The notes beneath the pieces are model-generated. The model saw nothing but the letters and a program-made list of their open reading frames with translations, was not told the DNA's origin and searched no databases. 64,000 bases of DNA. Origin: Escherichia coli. GTDB lineage: Bacteria; Pseudomonadota; Gammaproteobacteria; Enterobacterales; Enterobacteriaceae. Made by a program: the position numbers and the translations under genes. This document shows, in pieces, positions 4,715 to 50,188 of this stretch. The first letter of the stretch is position 1. The number at the start of each line of letters is the position of its first letter. The stretch lies in the NCBI RefSeq assembly GCF_036507355.1, contig NZ_AP027877.1; one strand, given 5' to 3'.

Positions 4715-4912
4715 AATTGCCATCCCTAATTGTATATACAAAAATGTATCTACAATTATTCTGCAATTATAGCGTTGATGTTGGAAATAGCATCACGTTT
4801 CGAATAATCAACCATGAAATTGACAATGAGTAAGTTGGACTTGATTCATCCAATAGAATTTCTCGCCTGACATGGCACACTAAACACCTCGCTGTCGGGT
4901 AATGACTCCAAC

Positions 4913-5415
4913 TTACTGATAGTGTTTTATGTTCAGATAATGCCCGATGGCCTTGTCATGCAGCTCCACCGATTTTGAGAACGACAGTGACTTCCGTCCC
5001 AGCCTTGCCAGATGTTGTCTCAGATTCAGATTATGTCGCTCAATGCGCTGAGTGTAACGCTTGCTGATAACGTGCAGCTTTCCCTTCAGGCGTGATTCAT
5101 ACAGCGGCCAGCCATCCGTCATCTATACTACGACCTCAAAGGCCGACAGCAGGCTCAGAAGACGCTCCAGTGTGGCCAGAGTGCGTTCACCGAAGACGTG
5201 GCCACAACCGTCCTCCGTATCCTGTCATACGCGTAAAACAGCCAGCGCTGACGTGATTTAGCACCGACGTAGCCCCAATGTTCGTCCATTTCAGCGCAGA
5301 CAATCACATCACTGCCCGGTTGTATGCGCGAGGTTACCGACTGCGGCCTGAGTTTTTTAAGTGACGTAAAACCGTGTTGAGGCCAACGCCCATAATGCGT
5401 GCACTGGCGCGACAT
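4913..5415 (-). pseudogene. insB: IS1 insB broken into two ORF fragments (4913-5122 and 5155-5415)
   Basis: Copy 2 has a continuous 167-aa InsB ORF; here the same protein is split across two frames. Confidence 0.6.
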
Positions 5416-5609
5416 CCGACGCCATTCATGGCCATATCAATGATTTTCTGGTGCGTACCGGGCTGAGAGGCGGTGTAAGTGAACTGCAGTTGCCATGTTT
5501 TACGGCAATGAGAGCAGAGATAGCGCTGATGTCCGGCAGTGCTTTTGCCGTTACGCACCACGCCTTCAGTAGCGGAGCAGGAAGGACATCTGATGGAAAT
5601 GGAAGCCAC
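5334..5609 (-). CDS. insA: IS1 InsA
   Basis: 91-aa [46 protein letters not shown]... Confidence 0.85.
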
Positions 5610-5923
5610 GCAAGCACCTTAAAATCACCATCATACACTAAATCAGTAAGTTGGCAGCATTACCAAATTTTAATTACACTTAAGGTGTATATTTTCTATG
5701 CAAGCCATCAATTAAAGAGGTGTAATGTGCTGATGACTATTTGTAATCGTTATACATTCTGACCTGGAGTCAGAAGGTATTTCTCTGTCTGTGTATTCGC
5801 AGGCAGTGTGGTTGATTACATGAAATTCAGTACATTTGTCCTTCTCGCCTGCCTTTCGTCATTACCGACGGTATTGAATTTCGTTTTCCCCATTGGGGTT
5901 CTCCGGACAAGGAGTTGTTTGTT

Positions 5924-7156
5924 ATGCCACGTTTTTTTGCCCGCCATGCCGCCACGCTGTTTTTCCCGATGGCGTTGATTTTGTATGACTTTGCTGCGTA
6001 TCTGTCGACGGACCTGATCCAGCCAGGGATCATTAATGTGGTCCGTGATTTTAATGCCGATGTCAGTCTGGCCCCGGCTGCCGTCAGTCTCTATCTCGCT
6101 GGAGGCATGGCATTGCAGTGGCTGCTGGGGCCGCTTTCCGACAGGGTTGGCCGCAGGCCGGTGCTGATTACCGGGGCGCTAATATTTACCCTTGCCTGTG
6201 CTGCGACAATGTTCACAACGTCTATGACACAGTTTCTTATCGCGCGTGCAATTCAGGGCACCAGTATCTGTTTTATTGCCACCGTTGGTTATGTCACGGT
6301 GCAGGAGGCGTTCGGACAGACAAAAGGGATCAAGTTGATGGCGATTATCACCTCCATCGTACTGATTGCGCCGATTATTGGCCCGCTTTCCGGCGCAGCT
6401 CTGATGCACTTTGTGCACTGGAAAGTCCTTTTTGCCATCATTGCGGTTATGGGTTTTATCTCATTTGTTGGCTTACTGCTGGCGATGCCAGAGACGGTGA
6501 AGCGCGGCGCGGTTCCATTTAGCGCCAAAAGCGTCTTGCGCGATTTTCGTAATGTCTTTTGCAATCGGCTGTTCCTCTTTGGCGCAGCAACCATCTCTTT
6601 AAGCTATATCCCCATGATGAGTTGGGTGGCTGTCTCGCCGGTGATCCTGATCGACGCGGGCGGCTTAACAACTTCGCAGTTCGCCTGGACACAGGTTCCG
6701 GTGTTCGGCGCGGTGATTGTCGCGAATGCCATCGTGGCGCGTTTCGTTAAAGATCCGACCGAACCGCGCTTTATCTGGCGTGCCGTACCCCTTCAACTGG
6801 TTGGCCTCGCGCTGTTGATTATCGGCAATCTGCTGTCACCGCACGTCTGGCTGTGGTCGGTGCTGGGCACCAGTCTGTATGCTTTCGGGATTGGTTTGAT
6901 TTTCCCGACCTTATTCCGCTTTACGCTGTTTTCCAATAACTTACCGAAAGGGACCGTCTCCGCATCGCTGAATATGGTGATCCTGATGGTGATGTCTGTC
7001 TCGGTCGAAATCGGCCGCTGGCTGTGGTTTAACAGCGGTCGCTTGCAGTTTCATCTGTTAGCCGTTGTGGCAGGCGTTATCGTCGTTTTCACCCTGGCCG
7101 GATTGCTTAATCGCGTGCGCCAACATCAGGCTGCCGAGCTGGCGGAGGAGCGGTGA
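5924..7156 (+). CDS. mdtM: MFS multidrug efflux transporter
   Basis: From [35 protein letters not shown] matches my memory of MdtM; hydrophobic multi-TM profile. Confidence 0.9.
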
Positions 7157-7196
7157 TTTTTGCGCGATCCTGCCGTCAGGCTCTATTCTTAACATT

Positions 7197-8477
7197 ATGA
7201 ATAAACTCATTGAACTCAGACGCGCCAAAATGTTGGCGCTCTCTTTACTGCTTATCGCCGCTGCTACCTTTGTCGTTACGCTGTTTTTGCCGCCTAATTT
7301 TTGGGTGAGCGGCGTGAAGGCGATTGCTGAAGCGGCGATGGTCGGCGCGCTGGCGGACTGGTTTGCGGTGGTGGCGCTGTTTCGCCGCGTGCCGATTCCG
7401 ATCATTTCTCGTCATACGGCGATTATTCCGCGTAATAAAGACCGGATTGGCGAAAATCTCGGCCAGTTCGTGCAGGAAAAATTTCTCGATACCCAATCGC
7501 TGGTGGCATTGATTCGACGTCACGAACCGGCGTTGTTGATTGGCAACTGGTTTAGTCAGCCAGAAAACGCCCGCCGCGTTGGTCAGCATCTGTTGCAGAT
7601 CATGAGCGGTTTTCTTGAACTAACCGATGATGCGCGTATTCAGCGCCTGCTTAAGCGCGCGGTCCACCGGGCGATTGATAAAGTCGATCTTTCTGGCACC
7701 AGTGCGTTGATGCTGGAGAGTATGACTAAAAACGATCGTCATCAGGTGCTGCTGGATACGCTGATCGCACAGTTGATCGCCCTTCTCCAGCGCGATAAAT
7801 CGCGCAAGTTTATTGCCCAGCAAATTGTTCGCTGGCTGGAGAGCGAGCATCCACTGAAAGCCAAAATTTTGCCCACTGAATGGCTGGGCGAACATAGCGC
7901 GGAGTTGGTTTCTGACGCGGTGAATTCTTTGCTTGATGATATCAGCCGCGATCGTGCGCATCAGATCCGCCATGCGTTTGATCGCGCTACCTTCGCCCTG
8001 ATCGAGAAACTGAAAAACGATCCGGAAATGGCGGCGCGAGCCGATGCCGTAAAAAGCTATCTGAAAGAAGATGAAGCTTTTAACCGCTATCTCAGTGAAT
8101 TGTGGGGGGATTTACGGGAATGGCTGAAAGCGGATATCAACAGTGAAGATTCTCGTGTGAAAGAACGTATCGCGCGGGCTGGTCAATGGTTTGGCGAAAC
8201 GTTAATTGCCGATGATGCCTTGCGGGCGTCGTTAAATGGTCATCTGGAACAAGCCGCACACCGCATTGCGCCTGAGTTTTCCGCATTCCTGACTCGCCAT
8301 ATCAGCGACACGGTAAAAAGCTGGGACGCACGGGATATGTCGCGGCAAATCGAGTTAAATATCGGCAAAGATCTCCAGTTTATCCGTGTCAACGGTACGC
8401 TGGTTGGCGGTTGTATTGGACTTATTTTGTATTTGCTGTCGCAGCTCCCGGCCTTGTTCCCCCTCGGCAATTTATAG
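7197..8477 (+). CDS. yjiN: DUF445 inner-membrane protein
   Basis: From [27 protein letters not shown]; the ATG at 7197 was checked in the sequence. The track ORF carries a 44-codon N-terminal extension that overlaps mdtM. Confidence 0.8.
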
Positions 8478-42190: not shown

Positions 42191-42428
42191 CACATCCCCG
42201 TCAATACGGCCCTCGCTGTACGCTTACTTTTGTTCGGACTGCTTATGGCCTTTTTCCACTGGTGTAGCAGGAAAGTTAACCGGCTGCCACCATGAGATGA
42301 CGTGTAAACCGTGCAGGCATGTTTTCACGTGGTGACGCTTTCATTGGGGGTCTACGCCGGAACCCCAATATTGTTCACATACATGAATTTGAAAAACTAA
42401 GCGATACTGCTGTCCGTACCTTATAAAC

Positions 42429-43787
42429 TTATTTCAACGCTTCCGGCAGCGTCACAATCCACAGTTCACTGTCAGACTCCGGTTTCTCCAGTGGCTTCAC
42501 TCTGAGGGTCGTTTCAACCTGCTTGTCGTCAAGCGTCAGCTTTCCTTCCGCGTTCACCCGATAATCCTTGAATGTCTTGCCCTCGACCGGATGTTGCATC
42601 GCCACCTTCACGCCAAAGTCGTTATCGTTCGCCACCGCCAGCGTTTTGCTGTCGATCAGCGCCAACCCTTCAGCCTTCTCCTGCTGCCAGCCCAAGGAGC
42701 GCAGATCAACAACCTGCGTTTTCTGCGCAAGGGTAATGCCGCGCTGTGACAGGGTTTTCTCATCATCAAACTCCGGATACTCACCCGGCTTGTCGAAGCC
42801 TGACAGGTCGCTCGCCTTATTGAGATCGACCTCGTAAATCAGGTTACGCATTCTGTTGTTTTTATCTCTTCCCTGTTCGATCAGCAGGATGTGCTGGTTA
42901 TCGAGCGCCACGATGTCTCCGATTTTAGCGTCGCTGTTTTTGCTGTAGGCCGCGCTGTCGATAGGATAACCGTACATCGCGGTTTTTCCGCTTGCCGGAT
43001 CGAAGCTCACCAGACGCGTAAACAGCGCCTTTTTCTTGCTCTTAGCGTCGATATCCAGCGTACTTTGCACGGCGACAATAATACGCCCGTCCGGCATACG
43101 GGTGAGGCCTTCAAAGCCGCGGTTCGCCTGACGCCATTTGAGGATATTTGGCAAACCGCCCGCAATCGCTTTTTCCCCTTCCGCCGCCTGCGGACCGTGG
43201 ATTGCCAGGATTTTCCCTTTACTGTCGATGTTAATCAGGAACGGGCCATACTCATCGCACAGCCAGTAACCTCCTTTACCATCCGGAGTGATCCCTTCCG
43301 TATCCAGCCCGCGATTATCCCCCTTCAGTCTATGTAACGTGTCGCTGAAGGCCACTTCATTGGTGGAGCCAATCACGTCGCTTGCCAGCGGCAGACCGTT
43401 GATCGCGCCTTTATCGTCATGCAGAGGACGGGGATCGATGGCCTCCGCTTTGCCGTTTTGTACACGAATCGTCATCAGCAGCGGCGCGAAATCTGGCGTA
43501 ACGAAAATTTTAGTTTCGTTTTTCCCCTCTTTCGGTGAATCCGCGTTCGGACCGCGATCGGTAATGGTTGCGAATGTCAGGGCATCGCCCTGTTTACCGG
43601 TGAACAGCAGGCCAGAACCTATCCCAACCGGAAGGCCGTTCGGGAATGCACTGGCAAATGCGCCGGCGTAGTTCACGTGCGTGCCTTCTGGAAAACTGAC
43701 GACATAGCGCTCAGCCGTAGGTTGTGCCGCCAGGGCAGAGAAAGAGAGCGTACAACCGATTAGCACGGGAATAATTTTTCTTTTCAT
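42429..43787 (-). CDS. Secreted beta-propeller protein, phytase-like esterase family (tentative)
   Basis: Signal peptide MKRKIIPVLIGCTLSFSALAA; repeated blades with TEGI / FEGL / AEGL and DEYGP motifs. Confidence 0.45.
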   Translation of the reverse strand: MKRKIIPVLIGCTLSFSALAAQPTAERYVVSFPEGTHVNYAGAFASAFPNGLPVGIGSGLLFTGKQGDALTFATITDRGPNADSPKEGKNETKIFVTPDFAPLLMTIRVQNGKAEAIDPRPLHDDKGAINGLPLASDVIGSTNEVAFSDTLHRLKGDNRGLDTEGITPDGKGGYWLCDEYGPFLINIDSKGKILAIHGPQAAEGEKAIAGGLPNILKWRQANRGFEGLTRMPDGRIIVAVQSTLDIDAKSKKKALFTRLVSFDPASGKTAMYGYPIDSAAYSKNSDAKIGDIVALDNQHILLIEQGRDKNNRMRNLIYEVDLNKASDLSGFDKPGEYPEFDDEKTLSQRGITLAQKTQVVDLRSLGWQQEKAEGLALIDSKTLAVANDNDFGVKVAMQHPVEGKTFKDYRVNAEGKLTLDDKQVETTLRVKPLEKPESDSELWIVTLPEALK

Positions 43788-44071
43788 ATTGTTAGCATCC
43801 ATAAAGTGAAGATCACACTACACCATAAAGAAGAAACGAGTCAGGAAAATGACATCGAATGGCAACATGCGCGGGCCTGAGGCCAAAGAAATGTAAAACA
43901 CTGTTGTTATTTGTAACAACGGAAACATTTACGGAAATTATTTGTCTTTCTTCGTGATCAAAAATGCTGTGTCTTGTTGGATTGGAGTGATGAGGGCTGC
44001 GTTTAGGAAACGCCCTATATTGTACGGTTGCATTATCGCGGTAGGGGTAATGCACGTGTCAGTATGATGAG

Positions 44072-44200
44072 CTGACCACACTCACGTGGGTGGACTGGTA
44101 TAACAATCGACGATTGCTGGAAAGGCAGGGCCATATCCCACCGGCAGAAGCAGAAAAAGCTTATTATGCTTCCATCGGAAACGATGATCTGGCAGCCTGA
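44072..44200 (+). pseudogene. C-terminal remnant of a DDE (rve-type, IS3-like) transposase
   Basis: Translates to ...WVDWYNNRRLLERQGHIPPAEAEKAYYAS...*, a typical transposase C-terminus; no upstream body. Confidence 0.4.
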
Positions 44201-44298
44201 GTTCACAGATAAAACACTCTCCAGGAAACCCGGGGCGGTTCACTTAGCCGCGTGTCCATTATTGCTGGATAAGATCATAACGAGGTAATGACTCCAAC

Positions 44299-44802
44299 TT
44301 ATTGATAGTGTTTTATGTTCAGATAATGCCCGATGACTTTGTCATGCAGCTCCACCGATTTTGAGAACGACAGCGACTTCCGTCCCAGCCGTGCCAGGTG
44401 CTGCCTCAGATTCAGGTTATGCCGCTCAATTCGCTGCGTATATCGCTTGCTGATTACGTGCAGCTTTCCCTTCAGGCGGGATTCATACAGCGGCCAGCCA
44501 TCCGTCATCCATATCACCACGTCAAAGGGTGACAGCAGGCTCATAAGACGCCCCAGCGTCGCCATCGTGCGTTCACCGAATACGTGCGCAACAACCGTCT
44601 TCCGGAGCCTGTCATACGCGTAAAACAGCCAGCGCTGGCGCGATTTAGCCCCGACATAGCCCCACTGTTCGTCCATTTCCGCGCAGACGATGACGTCACT
44701 GCCCGGCTGTATGCGCGAGGTTACCGACTGCGGCCTGAGTTTTTTAAGTGACGTAAAATCGTGTTGAGGCCAACGCCCATAATGCGGGCTGTTGCCCGGC
44801 AT
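44299..44802 (-). CDS. insB: IS1 InsB (transposase frame)
   Basis: 167-aa ORF ...[42 protein letters not shown]... Confidence 0.85.
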
Positions 44803-44996
44803 CCAACGCCATTCATGGCCATATCAATGATTTTCTGGTGCGTACCGGGTTGAGAAGCGGTGTAAGTGAACTGCAGTTGCCATGTTTTACGACAGTGAGA
44901 GCAGAGATAGCGCTGATGTCCGGCGGTGCTTTTGCCGTTACGCACCACCCCGTCAGTAGCTGAACAGGAGGGACAGCTGATAGAAACAGAAGCCAC
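44721..44996 (-). CDS. insA: IS1 InsA
   Basis: 91-aa [46 protein letters not shown]... Confidence 0.9.
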
Positions 44997-45065
44997 TGGA
45001 GCACCTCAAAAACACCATCATACACTAAATCAGTAAGTTGGCAGCATCACCGGCCTCGCATTTAA

Positions 45066-45911
45066 TTATTCATTTAAAGATTCAAGAAATGTCCAGCCTT
45101 TATGAGTAACATAATACATTTGTCCTTTTGCCCCTCTTTCAATCACAAAATCAAAGGATAACAGTTCGTTAAGTGCGCCCTCCCAACGGGCTACCTCTCT
45201 AGCCGAACTTCCACCAAAGGATTGATTTCCCGCTTGAATATCCGTGCCACCTAAATGCCTTATCACATAAATTGTTCCGCTATCATCGACACATGCCAAT
45301 TTCAGCAAACTGAGTGCATCGGCGGACAAATTACTTTCTGGCAAAGATTGACTTGTATTCGCATCAGGAGAATTGTTAATGGTAGATATAAGAGAAGACA
45401 AATAAGGGCTACTAGAAATAATTATCGAAAGTTGCCTACGGACTTTGTCTTTGAAATCAGATAAGTCATTAAAAGACTCTATCAATCCCTTTTGCATGCA
45501 CTCAATTTTGAACAATTTAAGAGACTCATATTGTTCTCTATCAAGGCTTTCAGGGGCAACAGGCTTTGAGGAAAAGTAAATCATTGCCGGTTTTCCCGCA
45601 TTCAAATGACGGTGAATTTCTTCGACTGTTCCGCTGGCCTCGTTCCCAGTCGGTGAGCCTAGACGAGTCCAAAACACACCGATTAATAAATCACAATCTA
45701 CTAATAATCTTTGATTAATCAACTCCTGAGGCCTAACTCCTAATTCGGGTGATGTATGAGTTTCCCATCCAATTGGTGTCAACATTACTTTTGAACGAGC
45801 TGAATTTATATCATTCCACTCATGGATCATTTCACGAATGACTTGTCTCTCTTCAGCGACATCACCAGGAGAAGCAATCATTACAGGGATAACAGTTGCT
45901 GTGTAAGCCAT
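45066..45911 (-). CDS. Hypothetical protein with DUF4062-like N-terminal domain and an uncharacterised C-terminal domain
   Basis: N-terminus VMIASPGDVAEERQVIREMIHEW ... DCDLLIGVFWTRLGSP ... SGTVEEIHRHLNAGKPAMIYF resembles the DUF4062 pattern as I recall it; GGAGAG RBS 6 nt upstream; visibly AT-rich. Confidence 0.45.
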   Translation of the reverse strand: MAYTATVIPVMIASPGDVAEERQVIREMIHEWNDINSARSKVMLTPIGWETHTSPELGVRPQELINQRLLVDCDLLIGVFWTRLGSPTGNEASGTVEEIHRHLNAGKPAMIYFSSKPVAPESLDREQYESLKLFKIECMQKGLIESFNDLSDFKDKVRRQLSIIISSSPYLSSLISTINNSPDANTSQSLPESNLSADALSLLKLACVDDSGTIYVIRHLGGTDIQAGNQSFGGSSAREVARWEGALNELLSFDFVIERGAKGQMYYVTHKGWTFLESLNE

Positions 45912-45924
45912 AAACTCTCCATAT

Positions 45925-46485
45925 TCAATCGGTAATAGCTGCTACAGTCGCTCTTGAAACGCCATATTGACGCGCTAACGCACTGATACTCAAACCGCTA
46001 TTCTTTTTCTCTAAAATCTCTCTACGGGCTTCTGACGCGATTTTAGGAGGTCTGCCCAATTTCTTACCTTCGGCTTTTGCTCGTGATAGTCCCGCCTGAG
46101 TGCGCTCAATCAGCAGATCACGCTCCATCTCCGCAACCGCGGCGAGCATAGATAATAGCAACTTCCCAGCGGCAGAAGTGAGATCTGTGTTACCAAGCTG
46201 GTGGACAAGAACCTTGATATTACGGTCAGCCAGCGCCCTTACCGTTTGCAGGACGTCAATCGCATCACGCCCCAGACGATCAAGCTTCGCTACCACCAAC
46301 GTTTCACCATCGCGGATTTTATTGAGCATTTCAGAAAATGCTTTACGTTGCATTGCCGGAACCTTCCCGCTAACAACATCGGCAAACCAGTAATCAATTT
46401 GCCACCCAGCCTGCCCAAGCTCCAGCCGTTGGTTCTCAGTATCCTGCTGCGATGTCGAAACACGTCCGTAGCCAAAAGTTGCCAT
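45925..46485 (-). CDS. Small serine recombinase (resolvase/invertase family), about 186 aa
   Basis: From MATFGYGRVSTSQQDTENQ (catalytic Ser region) with a C-terminal helix-turn-helix (LSISALARQYGVSRATV); GGGGAG RBS upstream of the ATG at 46485. The track ORF carries a 23-codon extension. Confidence 0.8.
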   Translation of the reverse strand: MATFGYGRVSTSQQDTENQRLELGQAGWQIDYWFADVVSGKVPAMQRKAFSEMLNKIRDGETLVVAKLDRLGRDAIDVLQTVRALADRNIKVLVHQLGNTDLTSAAGKLLLSMLAAVAEMERDLLIERTQAGLSRAKAEGKKLGRPPKIASEARREILEKKNSGLSISALARQYGVSRATVAAITD

Positions 46486-46507
46486 TGTTATCTCCCCATC
46501 TGACCCC

Positions 46508-46605
46508 TGCCAGAAAACGAGGCCAACATTAGGATGGCCTGCCAGAAAAGCCAAGGCTATTTTTCCAACAGTGTGAAAGCGTGCGATTGGGAGGTGCCAG
46601 AAAAC
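46508..46605. promoter_or_regulatory. Three direct copies of TGCCAGAAAA(C/G) upstream of the recombinase gene, plus a short GGCCA...TGGCC palindrome; candidate recombinase binding or regulatory site
   Basis: Copies read at 46508, 46540 and 46595; the GGCCAACATTAGGATGGCC palindrome lies between the first two. Confidence 0.35.
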
Positions 46606-47460
46606 GGTCGATTGATGACACCATCAAACACTAACAGTGTGCCCCGGCAACGCGCGCCTGCAACGGTTGTCTCGGATGAGCAAAATCTTAGGGTTTTCTC
46701 AGCGACCCCTGACGCGCGGGCACGCACATGCTCACGGGGGCGCGGGCGAGCTATACAGTTGAGGGAGGGGCAACCATAAGCGTGCAATTTTTCAAGCCGG
46801 GGATTCAGCTATAGGCTAACGGTAGAATGCGGCTTGTAGAGGGTTGTGCGCACATACCCAGTACAATCGCATTACTCCACGCGCACAAACCCCGGAGAGC
46901 CGCTTGCGGTGGGGGTTTAAGAGGTACAATTTTTGGTTCGGGTCATAAAGGACTTTTGAGAGCTGACTTAGCTTATTTAAACTGCATTCGTCTTGGCTAT
47001 GGAGACACGAGGCAGCTCAAGTTTTGTTCAAAACTTTGCAATATTTTGGTTCGATCTCATGTTCTCGTGCTAAAGAAATCAGCACTCGATCAAATTTTCA
47101 TTTTTTTTCTGAAACATTGACATACAGCCTAAGCCTTAAGGCACGTAGGGTTGGTCGAAATTTCCCTTTGACAACCTCAATTTAACCTCAAAATCAACCC
47201 TTGTACTGCAAAGAATCCTAACTAGAATGCTGAACATGTAGGGGGGAATCTTATTAACACACCCTATATGTTGTGCTCATGTATAAATGATGGGCATAAA
47301 AAAACCGGAGTCACCTGCGTGAATCCGGTCTATGAAGCATGACCGCCATGAGTCTGCAAACTCATAACGATTGTTAGCCTCACTATCGTTTCTAACGGCT
47401 CGATTGTGCCCGGCTTGGTTGGTTATGTAAACAGTAAGATAAAATCAAAAGGAACGATCC

Positions 47461-48375
47461 ATGCTTATTCAGAAAAAGCGTATTCGAAATATTGATAATT
47501 ACATACCTAACTTTGATGGCCGTGATATCTACATTGCACATTCTTTGCCAGATGCGGGGAAAACGGACTCTATTGGTTTCTCAAGTCAAAGAGCTTTAGG
47601 TGAAGAAGTCCTCCCCAAGATTTTAGGGCCAATAACCAGATTCAATGCTAATGGCAAATCAGTACCTGACAAAACAGCACCTAAAGAAACTGCATACAGA
47701 CAAATTTCATGGACTAGAAAGCAATGGATCGGAGGGGGCGCAACTCAAGAAGTTACTGACACTCGTGAAATTGAGTATAAGCGCTACAAGAGAATCCTCA
47801 CCCCTCCACCAAGCATAGAGTTAAAGATTGTAGAGAATCTTCAAGGGGAGAAGTTGATCATCTCTCCAAAGCTAAGTTTGACAGCTAACAACAAAGAGTT
47901 AGTGGCTCACTGCATTAATCTTTTTTTAGAGCTTTTTGGGTTGTGCGAAACTGTTGACGACCAACTTAATACCATCGTTAAAAGTAAATCTATAAAACTA
48001 AACTGGAGCCTCCTGCCTCAGGGTCAACAGCCTTGGAGTACTATCGGTTCAAAAATCCTTTCAGCTATTAAGATCAGGGGAAAGGGCAATACCGCTGTTG
48101 TTGAAGGCAGACTTGAACTTATCAATAGTAAAAAACCAGATTTCGTAGCGGTTGGGCAAGCTGGGTTCCAAGGCTACGTGATATTTGGGTTCACAGGCCA
48201 AAACATTTACGTGCTAGAAAGCTCACAATGTAATAACGCAACTTATATACTTAACAATAATTGGCAGCAGTTATCCCAGCTAACTAAAGCCGAAATACTA
48301 GACGGAAACTTGCACCATGCCCGTGTCATCCACCGTGTAAACTGGGCAGCAGAAATACTTAAATACTTACCATAA
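47461..48375 (+). CDS. Hypothetical protein (304 aa), no domain recognised
   Basis: ATG preceded by an AAGGAA RBS at about 8-nt spacing; visibly AT-rich; no homologue recognised by eye. Confidence 0.5.
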   Translation: MLIQKKRIRNIDNYIPNFDGRDIYIAHSLPDAGKTDSIGFSSQRALGEEVLPKILGPITRFNANGKSVPDKTAPKETAYRQISWTRKQWIGGGATQEVTDTREIEYKRYKRILTPPPSIELKIVENLQGEKLIISPKLSLTANNKELVAHCINLFLELFGLCETVDDQLNTIVKSKSIKLNWSLLPQGQQPWSTIGSKILSAIKIRGKGNTAVVEGRLELINSKKPDFVAVGQAGFQGYVIFGFTGQNIYVLESSQCNNATYILNNNWQQLSQLTKAEILDGNLHHARVIHRVNWAAEILKYLP

Positions 48376-48888
48376 AGCGCCGGACGCGCGGGAATGAACC
48401 CCCGCGCACTTTCAAACATACCGCAATAGAATCCATAAAGCCCCGTTGGTGGTAAGACAACAAGCGGAGCCTCTGGCGACTACATCACAGTTATGTCAGT
48501 TAGTGAGGCTTATCAGGATGACCATGTACCCAAGGGGAGCGAGGCCGAACCGCTGGCAGAGCTTGCATATGGTCTGCAAGTACCGTGACCACCATAAACC
48601 TGTTTATCCCCTGCGGCGTCTCGCGACAGCGGCAGAACGGGGGCATCGGGCTAAAATGCGCTTCACTAAAAGTTTTTGGGATTGTTTAGAGACAGTGGCT
48701 ACGTCATAGCTTTCAAGTTGAGTCAGTACGTGTTTGACGCTTGGAACTACACGCCGCTATGAGTTAACATCCCAATTACCACTATCAACCACAGCGGCTT
48801 TTTCAAGGGACATAACAGAGCATTTCTTACAGGCAAAAGAGACAGATTTTATTGTCTAACTACCTGTATTGTAAGGAATTTAGTGACT

Positions 48889-48973
48889 TGGTGCCGAAGG
48901 CCGGACTCGAACCGGCACGTATTTCTACGGTTGATTTTGAATCAACTGCGTCTACCGATTTCGCCACTTCGGC
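48889..48973 (-). tRNA. leuX: tRNA-Leu (leuX type, CAA anticodon)
   Basis: Reverse complement reads GCCGAAGTGGCGAAATCGGTAGACGCAGTTGATTCAAAATCAACCGTAGAAATACGTGCCGGTTCGAGTCCGGCCTTCGGCACCA, a cloverleaf with a long variable arm and CCA end. Confidence 0.9.
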
Positions 48974-49168
48974 ACTGAAGAGGTATGCGGAAAACGTTGT
49001 GGATTATACCTGTCGCACGCCACCATGCAAGCGCCAGCTTGCTCGCACCTCGCTAAGTGCTGAAATTTTCAGCATTGCATACAGCGATGTGTAACCTTTG
49101 TCACACTCCAGGCACCCCGCCCTGCCATGCTCTACACTTCCCAGACAACACCAGAGAAGGACCAAAAA

Positions 49169-50188
49169 ATGTCGATGATAAAAAGCTATGCCGCAAAAGA
49201 AGCAGGCGGCGAACTGGAAGTTTATGAGTACGATCCCGGTGAACTGAAGCCACAAGATGTTGAAGTGCAGGTGGATTACTGCGGGATCTGCCATTCCGAT
49301 CTGTCGATGATCGATAACGAATGGGGATTTTCACAATATCCGCTGGTTGCCGGGCATGAGGTGATTGGTCGCGTGGTGGCGCTCGGGAGCGCCGCGCAGG
49401 ATAAAGGTTTGCAGGTCGGTCAGCGTGTCGGGATTGGCTGGACGGCGCGTAGCTGCGGGCATTGCGATGCCTGTATTAGCGGTAATCAGATCAACTGTGA
49501 GCAAGGTGCGGTGCCGACGATTATGAATCGCGGTGGCTTTGCCGAGAAGTTGCGTGCGGACTGGCAATGGGTGATTCCACTGCCAGAAAATATTGATATC
49601 GAGTCCGCCGGGCCGCTGTTGTGCGGTGGTATCACGGTCTTCAAACCACTGTTAATGCACCATATCACTGCCACCAGCCGCGTTGGGGTAATTGGTATTG
49701 GCGGGCTGGGGCATATCGCTATAAAACTTCTGCACGCAATGGGATGCGAGGTGACAGCCTTTAGTTCGAATCCGGCGAAAGAGCAGGAAGTACTGGCGAT
49801 GGGTGCCGATAAAGTGGTGAATAGCCGCGATCCGCAGGCACTGAAAGCACTGGCGGGGCAGTTTGATCTCATTATCAACACCGTCAACGTCAGCCTCGAC
49901 TGGCAGCCTTATTTTGAAGCGCTGACGTACGGCGGTAATTTCCATACGGTCGGTGCGGTTCTCACGCCGCTGTCTGTTCCGGCCTTTACGTTAATTGCGG
50001 GCGACCGCAGCGTCTCTGGTTCTGCTACCGGCACGCCTTATGAGTTGCGTAAGCTGATGCGCTTTGCCGCCCGCAGCAAGGTTGCGCCGACTACCGAATT
50101 GTTCCCGATGTCGAAAATTAACGACGCCATTCAGCATGTACGCGATGGTAAAGCGCGCTACCGAGTGGTCCTGAAAGCCGACTTCTGA
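49169..50188 (+). CDS. ahr: NADPH-dependent aldehyde reductase (zinc alcohol dehydrogenase family)
   Basis: From [26 protein letters not shown]...GHEVIG...GIGGLGH. Confidence 0.9.

Follow-up and report, generated by a model that had tools for sequence, protein, structure and literature searches.

In a 64,000-nucleotide (nt) stretch of Escherichia coli DNA (the window, within which all positions are numbered), the second copy of the insertion sequence (IS) IS1 marks an ordinary IS1 deletion beside an intact gene from a class of defence genes that was described recently, a DUF4062-family gene that follows a small serine recombinase gene. What was lost are the distal genes of a small islet at the tRNA gene leuX, its attR, the terminator of the operon and neighbouring island DNA; the operon itself and the DUF4062 gene were spared. 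The best explanation of the observations as a whole, and one that we regard as probable, is that the recombinase–DUF4062 transcription unit is complete at the coding level. A preliminary description of this DNA had IS1 copy 2 ending at 45051 and the DUF4062-like gene stopping at 45066, as we find them, and proposed from their closeness that IS1 had removed downstream partner genes and left an incomplete system. The spacing of 15 bp that it gave is the difference between these coordinates, but the gap itself is 14 nt (45052–45065). Loci used for comparison are designated by L-numbers (L021, strain CUVET21-37; L006, DJH_183sputum; L033, FDAARGOS_1293; L008, NRZ101721; L032, O15:H12 2273-PO3).

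The DUF4062-family gene (45066–45911, minus strand) encodes an intact protein of 281 amino acids (aa), and in IS1-free relatives it ends at the identical stop codon. In these relatives a terminator-like hairpin with a 10-bp stem and a T-rich tail lies on the minus strand 34 bp past the stop (L001 7981..7956), and past the hairpin come a convergent gene for a 164-aa membrane protein and then a divergently transcribed Xre-type helix–turn–helix (HTH) gene. A 601-bp probe centred on the convergent junction found it intact in 381 complete E. coli genomes, against 383 that carry the gene pair (at least 80% of the pair matched). For the operon, IS1-free relatives essentially end at the same point as the window does, and only opposite-strand genes lie beyond. 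Truncation of the DUF4062 gene itself was considered and rejected, as the protein aligns end to end with its family and an identical protein is encoded on 372 contigs; all 10 of the contigs sampled among those encoding it were uninterrupted. The proposal that the operon lost downstream partners to IS1 is right in that DNA was lost beside the gene pair, but not as regards the operon, which is intact and whose next genes in relatives lie on the opposite strand.

IS1 copy 2 (44284–45051, minus strand) is an IS1A-like element of 768 bp with terminal inverted repeats that were read directly, its ends being GGTAATGACTCC... and ...GGCAGCATCACC (also given as GGTAATGACTCCAACTTA... and ...TAAGTTGGCAGCATCACC). 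Its insA-proximal end abuts the DUF4062 gene across the 14 nt, which are a leftover of the native 3' flank of that gene, so that the deletion junction falls at 45051/45052. Elements of the IS1 family measure about 768 bp and have imperfect terminal inverted repeats of about 23 bp, and copy 2 fits this pattern. Its insA (44721–44996, 91 aa) and insB' (44299–44802, 167 aa) overlap on the minus strand in the arrangement of a −1 frameshift, and an annotated IS1A copy from a different E. coli strain (L002) matches the element at 99.7% identity. A simple IS1 insertion is expected to leave a target-site duplication of 8–9 bp. Copy 2 has none (left flank ...TCATAACGA, right flank GGCCTCGCA..., the flanking 9-mers being different), which indicates a secondary deletion or recombination at what is still an IS1 element.

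Comparison with relatives locates the missing DNA. Hundreds of IS1-free E. coli genomes run collinear with the window rightwards from 45052, with identity above 99.8%, and this collinearity begins exactly at 45052 (L001 8001, L021 43941). Strain CUVET21-37 contains both window flanks in the same order and orientation, 41,884 bp apart, with window 42227–44283 corresponding to L021 1–2056 and window 45052–50112 to L021 43941–49001. As one IS1 takes the place of this interval without a target duplication, DNA beside the gene pair was lost; the window is equivalent to the L021 arrangement with a single IS1 in place of about 41.9 kb, the pattern that an IS1-associated deletion leaves. The window junction was absent from 5,426 complete E. 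coli genomes when these were searched with a 1.55-kb query and with 100-bp junction queries; matches to the right junction (86–90% identity) were unrelated loci, and those to the left junction were two-piece artefacts on plasmids. Locus L007, which had been a candidate for a nested IS1 deletion, was rejected because it keeps the native left flank of its IS1, so that its deletion is not IS1-adjacent. No terminator-like site was found on the minus strand of the window from the DUF4062 stop to the far side of IS1, and as the native terminator has also gone, transcriptional read-through into insA is likely from the sequence.

Adjacent deletion and recombination between two IS1 copies are both classical behaviours of IS1, and either of them, in the second case between copies in direct orientation, would have created the joint. 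The event would have brought the sequence ending 14 nt beyond the DUF4062 stop next to a remote site in the neighbouring island, which carries a phytase-like gene and an IS66 element. Lost in it would be the genes for the membrane protein and the HTH regulator, attR, the hairpin terminator of the operon and, with CUVET21-37 as the reference, another 41 kb or so of island DNA. The window resembles classical IS1 deletions in having a lone IS1 at a novel joint without an 8–9 bp duplication, in having flanks that are about 42 kb apart in relatives, and in the AT-richness of the region and its crowding with IS elements. It departs from the simple two-copy picture in that IS1 copy 2 and the IS1 that the comparator carries within the missing interval share just 94.5% identity. 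One-ended deletions on both sides and recombination between two copies would lead to the same product; the order and the mechanism of the IS1 events that we propose are inferred.

Other IS elements were met in the same surroundings. IS1 copy 1 of the window (4898–5664, 767 bp) has the same orientation as copy 2, to which it is about 91% identical; it too is without a target duplication (left flank TCGCTGTCG, right flank AAATTTTAA, both different from those of copy 2) and probably marks another rearrangement. E. coli DJH_183sputum carries an independent IS1 (L006 6041–6808) with an intact 8-bp duplication, GAAATGTC, that falls in the last codons of the DUF4062 gene (equivalent to window 45086–45093), 34 bp from the window junction, and the membrane-protein and HTH genes downstream of it are kept. 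In FDAARGOS_1293 (L033) ISEc52 cuts through the membrane-protein gene. Three independent IS events in different strains within about 200 bp of the 3' end of the DUF4062 gene suggest a local IS target or hot spot, to which we attach no wider consequence. On the opposite side of the gene pair, in another lineage, an IS1F directly upstream of the recombinase joins the pair to ykiE-fecIRABC (E. coli NRZ101721, L008 6013–8333), so that the pair is IS1-bounded there as well.

The islet to which the pair belongs is attached at leuX. The tRNA-Leu(CAA) gene leuX (48889–48973, minus strand; ARAGORN) contains at its 3' end the 26-bp core repeat (48888–48913), which IS1-free relatives have a second time at the distal end of the islet; a perfect copy lies just beyond the HTH gene in L001 (6239–6264) and L021 (42179–42204), and the two repeats bound an islet of 5.6 kb. 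The complete order is leuX, a gene for 304 aa, the serine recombinase, the DUF4062 gene, the convergent 164-aa membrane-protein gene, the HTH regulator and the 26-bp attR. The window has a single copy of the repeat, that of leuX; the distal one is missing because the distal boundary was deleted, and the window retains the leuX-proximal two thirds of this small integrative islet. No integrase gene is found beside leuX in the window or in L001-type strains, where the 304-aa gene takes this place (47461–48375, plus strand, in the window; at the same place in all IS1-free relatives sampled); in L006- and L011-type islets a 636-aa protein with DUF6538 and Phage_integrase domains, a tyrosine integrase, is encoded there. 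The 304-aa open reading frame (ORF) had no match in Pfam, NCBIfam or PADLOC; in other islet types its slot is filled by genes for the tyrosine integrase, NIPSNAP and DUF1643 proteins, and a non-coding gap of about 975 bp (46486–47460) separates it from the recombinase.

The islet genes differ in how far their alleles have diverged. Between the variant islet and the window type (L011 5427–8101 against L001 6755–9434) the proteins are 99% (HTH), 90% (membrane protein), 65% (DUF4062) and 84% (recombinase) identical. At the DNA level the HTH and membrane-protein genes align at 92% to just inside the 3' end of the DUF4062 gene, beyond which the remainder of that gene is unalignable or, together with the recombinase, aligns at 76.5%, a pattern suggesting that the two halves of the islet may have been exchanged separately. 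The DUF4062 gene is the most divergent gene of the islet, as expected for a mosaic or for a defence gene under diversifying selection. A handy IS1-free source of the intact islet, with an uninterrupted junction between the DUF4062 and membrane-protein genes, is E. coli Nissle 1917 (NZ_CP171242.1 4370396–4370996).

Judged by its sequence, the DUF4062 protein belongs at full length to a widespread family of about 280 aa whose genes appear to stand alone. A family search gave 2,158 matches at E ≤ 0.001, and the best 120 of these 2,158 homologs are mostly about 270–305 aa long with near-complete coverage. In an alignment of 30 sequences from Gamma-, Beta- and Deltaproteobacteria the homologs are 52–65% identical to the window protein, 55 positions are invariant and the C-termini are aligned; homologs occur in E. 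coli, Klebsiella and Yersinia. The label 'DUF4062-like' in the preliminary description was a fair one, given a marginal match to Pfam DUF4062 (PF13271) and a strong N-terminal match to PADLOC PDC-S60, in which residues 8–167 align with positions 5–169 (E = 1.7e-26). PDC-S60 is a profile of 906 positions of which the other approximately 740 are without a counterpart in the window protein, so that the N-terminal domain alone is common to both and the protein is not a member of that family. Many members of the window protein's own family carry a precomputed PF13271 match. The AlphaFold2 (AF2) model (mean confidence score, pLDDT, 79.8) has an alpha/beta N-terminal domain (residues 6–147) with a TIR/NDT-like three-layer alpha/beta fold, two stalk helices (150–180), a disordered linker and a winged-helix-like C-terminal domain (197–280). 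DUF4062 core and C-terminal auxiliary domain are thus joined in one polypeptide, and the family conserves each of the two. Many members named 'recombinase family protein' (76–197 aa) also appear in the 90%-identity cluster of a DUF4062 protein; they have probably been clustered by artefact because the genes are adjacent, with fused or mis-called ORFs as one possible cause.

Genes of this architecture have recently been described as defence systems. According to two bioRxiv preprints of 2026, a DUF4062 domain with an auxiliary domain constitutes a single-gene abortive-infection defence that depletes NAD+ (10.64898/2026.05.01.722283; 10.64898/2026.06.25.731849). In Swarozyc (KpSwz; Osinski et al., 10.64898/2026.05.01.722283) a TIR-like core is followed by a helical stalk and an HTH/winged auxiliary domain and activation is by the phage portal protein; NAD+ hydrolase activity is reported there for KpSwz and TEP1. 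In Evangelion (Eva01–04; Ibarra-Chavez et al., 10.64898/2026.06.25.731849) the DUF4062 core is coupled to diverse auxiliary regions. The window protein is like Swarozyc in its N-terminal DUF4062 TIR-like domain of about 165 residues, helical stalk and C-terminal domain of HTH/winged-helix type, and its gene likewise stands alone on a mobile island among defence-type genes. Residues E97 and E98 are invariant in the 30 homologs where KpSwz has its catalytic E97, the two proteins being compared here by residue number alone. Unlike Swarozyc, the E. coli DUF4062 gene follows a serine recombinase, and KpSwz constructs start from residue 15 or 16, pointing to a numbering or a lineage other than that of the window protein. 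With Evangelion it shares a conserved DUF4062 core and a diversified C-terminal auxiliary region (required for defence in Evangelion) in a single gene on mobile elements, but Eva01 is plasmid-borne in Staphylococcus aureus, and its motifs (F11, E87-Y88) are spaced differently, with 76 residues between the end of the first strand and the Glu as against about 85 in the window family. Direct identification with Swarozyc was attempted and given up, the supplement offering accessions only, motif searches of the supplement being negative and a PDB sequence search returning no relative.

By analogy with these systems we infer that the DUF4062 gene is a candidate defence gene of the single-gene, DUF4062 plus auxiliary-domain type, and we leave its lineage unassigned (KpSwz WP_202404386, the E. 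coli protein UPI0002A39D72 and Eva01 were compared by description). The winged-helix-like C-terminal domain would act as a sensor that detects a phage component and releases the TIR-like DUF4062 NADase, and the NADase, with E97 or E98 as candidate catalytic Glu, would deplete NAD+. A putative role as a single-protein abortive-infection system is proposed because of the architecture and the 2026 literature, and both the NADase activity and the defence role of the window protein are to be understood as predictions.

Several points weigh against the reading of an intact single-gene system beside an IS1 deletion. The size of 41.9 kb is valid against one comparator only, and in other strains the interval holds the fec operon. 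The match to PF13271 (residues 10–99, E = 7.8e-5) falls below the gathering threshold, at 23.2 against 24.7 bits; the Pfam model spans only about half of the domain (Osinski et al., 10.64898/2026.05.01.722283). D16, R18, D71, W176 and W238/Y239 of KpSwz do not map cleanly onto the window protein, which has been likened to Swarozyc by published description. Lastly, the 164-aa membrane protein and the HTH regulator accompany the gene pair in every E. coli islet type sampled, and there may be a functional link between them and the pair that was lost in the window strain.

Were this so, the operon would be intact and the system functionally incomplete, the deleted membrane-protein and HTH genes having been its working partners, for example as a repressor silencing the NADase or as a membrane co-effector. 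We consider this unlikely. Consistent with it, three E. coli islet contexts show the four genes inherited together inside one att-bounded islet, the HTH protein is similar to defence 'control proteins' and to CapH (PADLOC E = 1.3e-18 and 1.6e-10), and a homolog of the membrane-protein gene (78% DNA identity) lies near an unrelated TIR-domain gene in L032. However, neither gene is found beside DUF4062-family homologs outside E. coli. When the ORFs of eight loci were compared all against all by blastp, the six loci from outside E. coli (±4 kb) had the DUF4062 protein itself as their only common protein, and the recombinase was absent from them; the neighbours all differ, including an HEPN gene, a lambda Ea47-like gene and AbiE, AbiT and ThsB-TIR islands, and the Kangiella homolog has housekeeping genes alone beside it. 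The uneven divergence of the alleles, with its break in DNA identity near the 3' end of the DUF4062 gene, suggests separately exchanged modules, FDAARGOS_1293 has kept the pair after losing most of the membrane-protein gene to ISEc52, and the membrane-protein gene also occurs at other loci and on plasmids without DUF4062. As to the L032 locus (4761–7622, in a plasmid-like chromosomal region of E. coli O15:H12 2273-PO3), the membrane-protein homolog there lies between two IS1 copies and just upstream of the gene for a 287-aa TIR-domain protein, which may be coincidence or a hint of an association with TIR-type genes; the TIR-domain protein was considered as a relative of the window DUF4062 protein and no relatedness was found.

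In a wider form of the same idea, to which we give little credence, recombinase, DUF4062, membrane-protein and HTH genes would form one unit on a leuX islet of 5.6–7.3 kb, with the HTH and membrane proteins regulating or assisting a putative DUF4062 NADase lineage of about 280 aa and the recombinase aiding movement of the cassette. If it were true, the IS1 deletion would be a natural 'regulator-less' variant, deregulated or silenced, and the islet would hold a version with several components of what has until now been described as a single-gene system.

Against these possibilities, the preferred reading remains that of a complete two-gene operon next to a deletion, and the proposal of the preliminary description that IS1 removed co-transcribed downstream partners of the operon is very unlikely. 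It draws on a genuine observation, the IS1 lying 14 nt past the stop without a target duplication, so that DNA did go missing at this point. The next gene in IS1-free relatives is nevertheless convergent and a hairpin follows the common stop, the DUF4062 gene is full length, homologs elsewhere have no conserved downstream gene or other common neighbour beside them, and the published DUF4062 systems are single-gene, on all of which grounds a system made incomplete by truncation of its operon has to be abandoned.

The gene upstream of DUF4062 raises a different possibility. The small serine recombinase (45925–46485, minus strand, 186 aa; RefSeq WP_000190110.1, 'recombinase family protein') is of the resolvase/invertase type, with a Pfam match of its catalytic domain to PF00239 Resolvase (E = 1.3e-36) that includes the active-site Ser (motif YGRVSTSQQ in the translation) and a C-terminal HTH matching HTH_7 (E = 1.2e-5). 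Its gene precedes the DUF4062 gene on the same strand with 13 nt between them, and the two are probably co-transcribed. It is highly improbable that this protein is a DNA invertase phase-varying the expression of DUF4062 and that IS1 took one of its recombination sites or an alternative cassette. Its type, its position directly before the DUF4062 gene and a top NCBIfam match to the Mpi master-invertase family would suit such a role, but the match to the Mpi equivalog reaches 98 bits where the cut-off asks for 272, all genomes sampled have one and the same orientation and distant DUF4062 homologs are without a recombinase. An inverted-repeat scan of L001 5500–11900 gave only short imperfect pairs (14–25 nt, 72–88% complementary) and no convincing pair of sites. 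That the window arrangement is ancestral, a simple IS1 insertion with the approximately 41 kb gained later by other strains, is scarcely tenable, for nothing specific speaks for it beyond the interval being a mosaic of IS elements and cargo that varies among strains, and against it stand the missing target duplication at IS1 copy 2, the presence in the relatives' interval of the islet's own attR repeat and the operon terminator, and the counts of the window junction (0 of 5,426 complete genomes) and the uninterrupted form (381).

The joint between IS1 and the DUF4062 gene lies within the variable leuX island region of the E. coli chromosome. To its right leuX is followed by ahr, yjgR and lptG, as named by collinearity with annotated relatives. 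To the left of IS1 copy 2 are an IS3 remnant, the phytase-like gene and the IS66 element, and further left of this island are ORFs that, from their size alone, may be fim genes. The preliminary description had noted a C-terminal transposase remnant beyond the IS1, and it is real: an IS3-family pseudogene fragment (44034–44201, plus strand) belonging to the neighbouring phytase-like/IS66 island. By tblastn about 44034–44198 is 74.5% identical to residues 350–404 of a 404-aa IS3-family transposase (E = 8e-24), at a distance of about 85 bp beyond IS1 copy 2, and RefSeq agrees in naming the homologous stretch of other strains 'IS3 family transposase, missing N-terminus'. The 43-aa ORF in it had no Pfam match, and it is the tblastn alignment that confirms the remnant.

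Annotations of the window strain should record both the DUF4062 gene and the recombinase as intact. The operon is whole; missing from the strain are the distal portion of the leuX islet and, when CUVET21-37 is the reference, some 41 kb of adjoining island DNA. The locus is a further case, chromosomal and from E. coli, of a gene in which DUF4062 is combined with an auxiliary domain.

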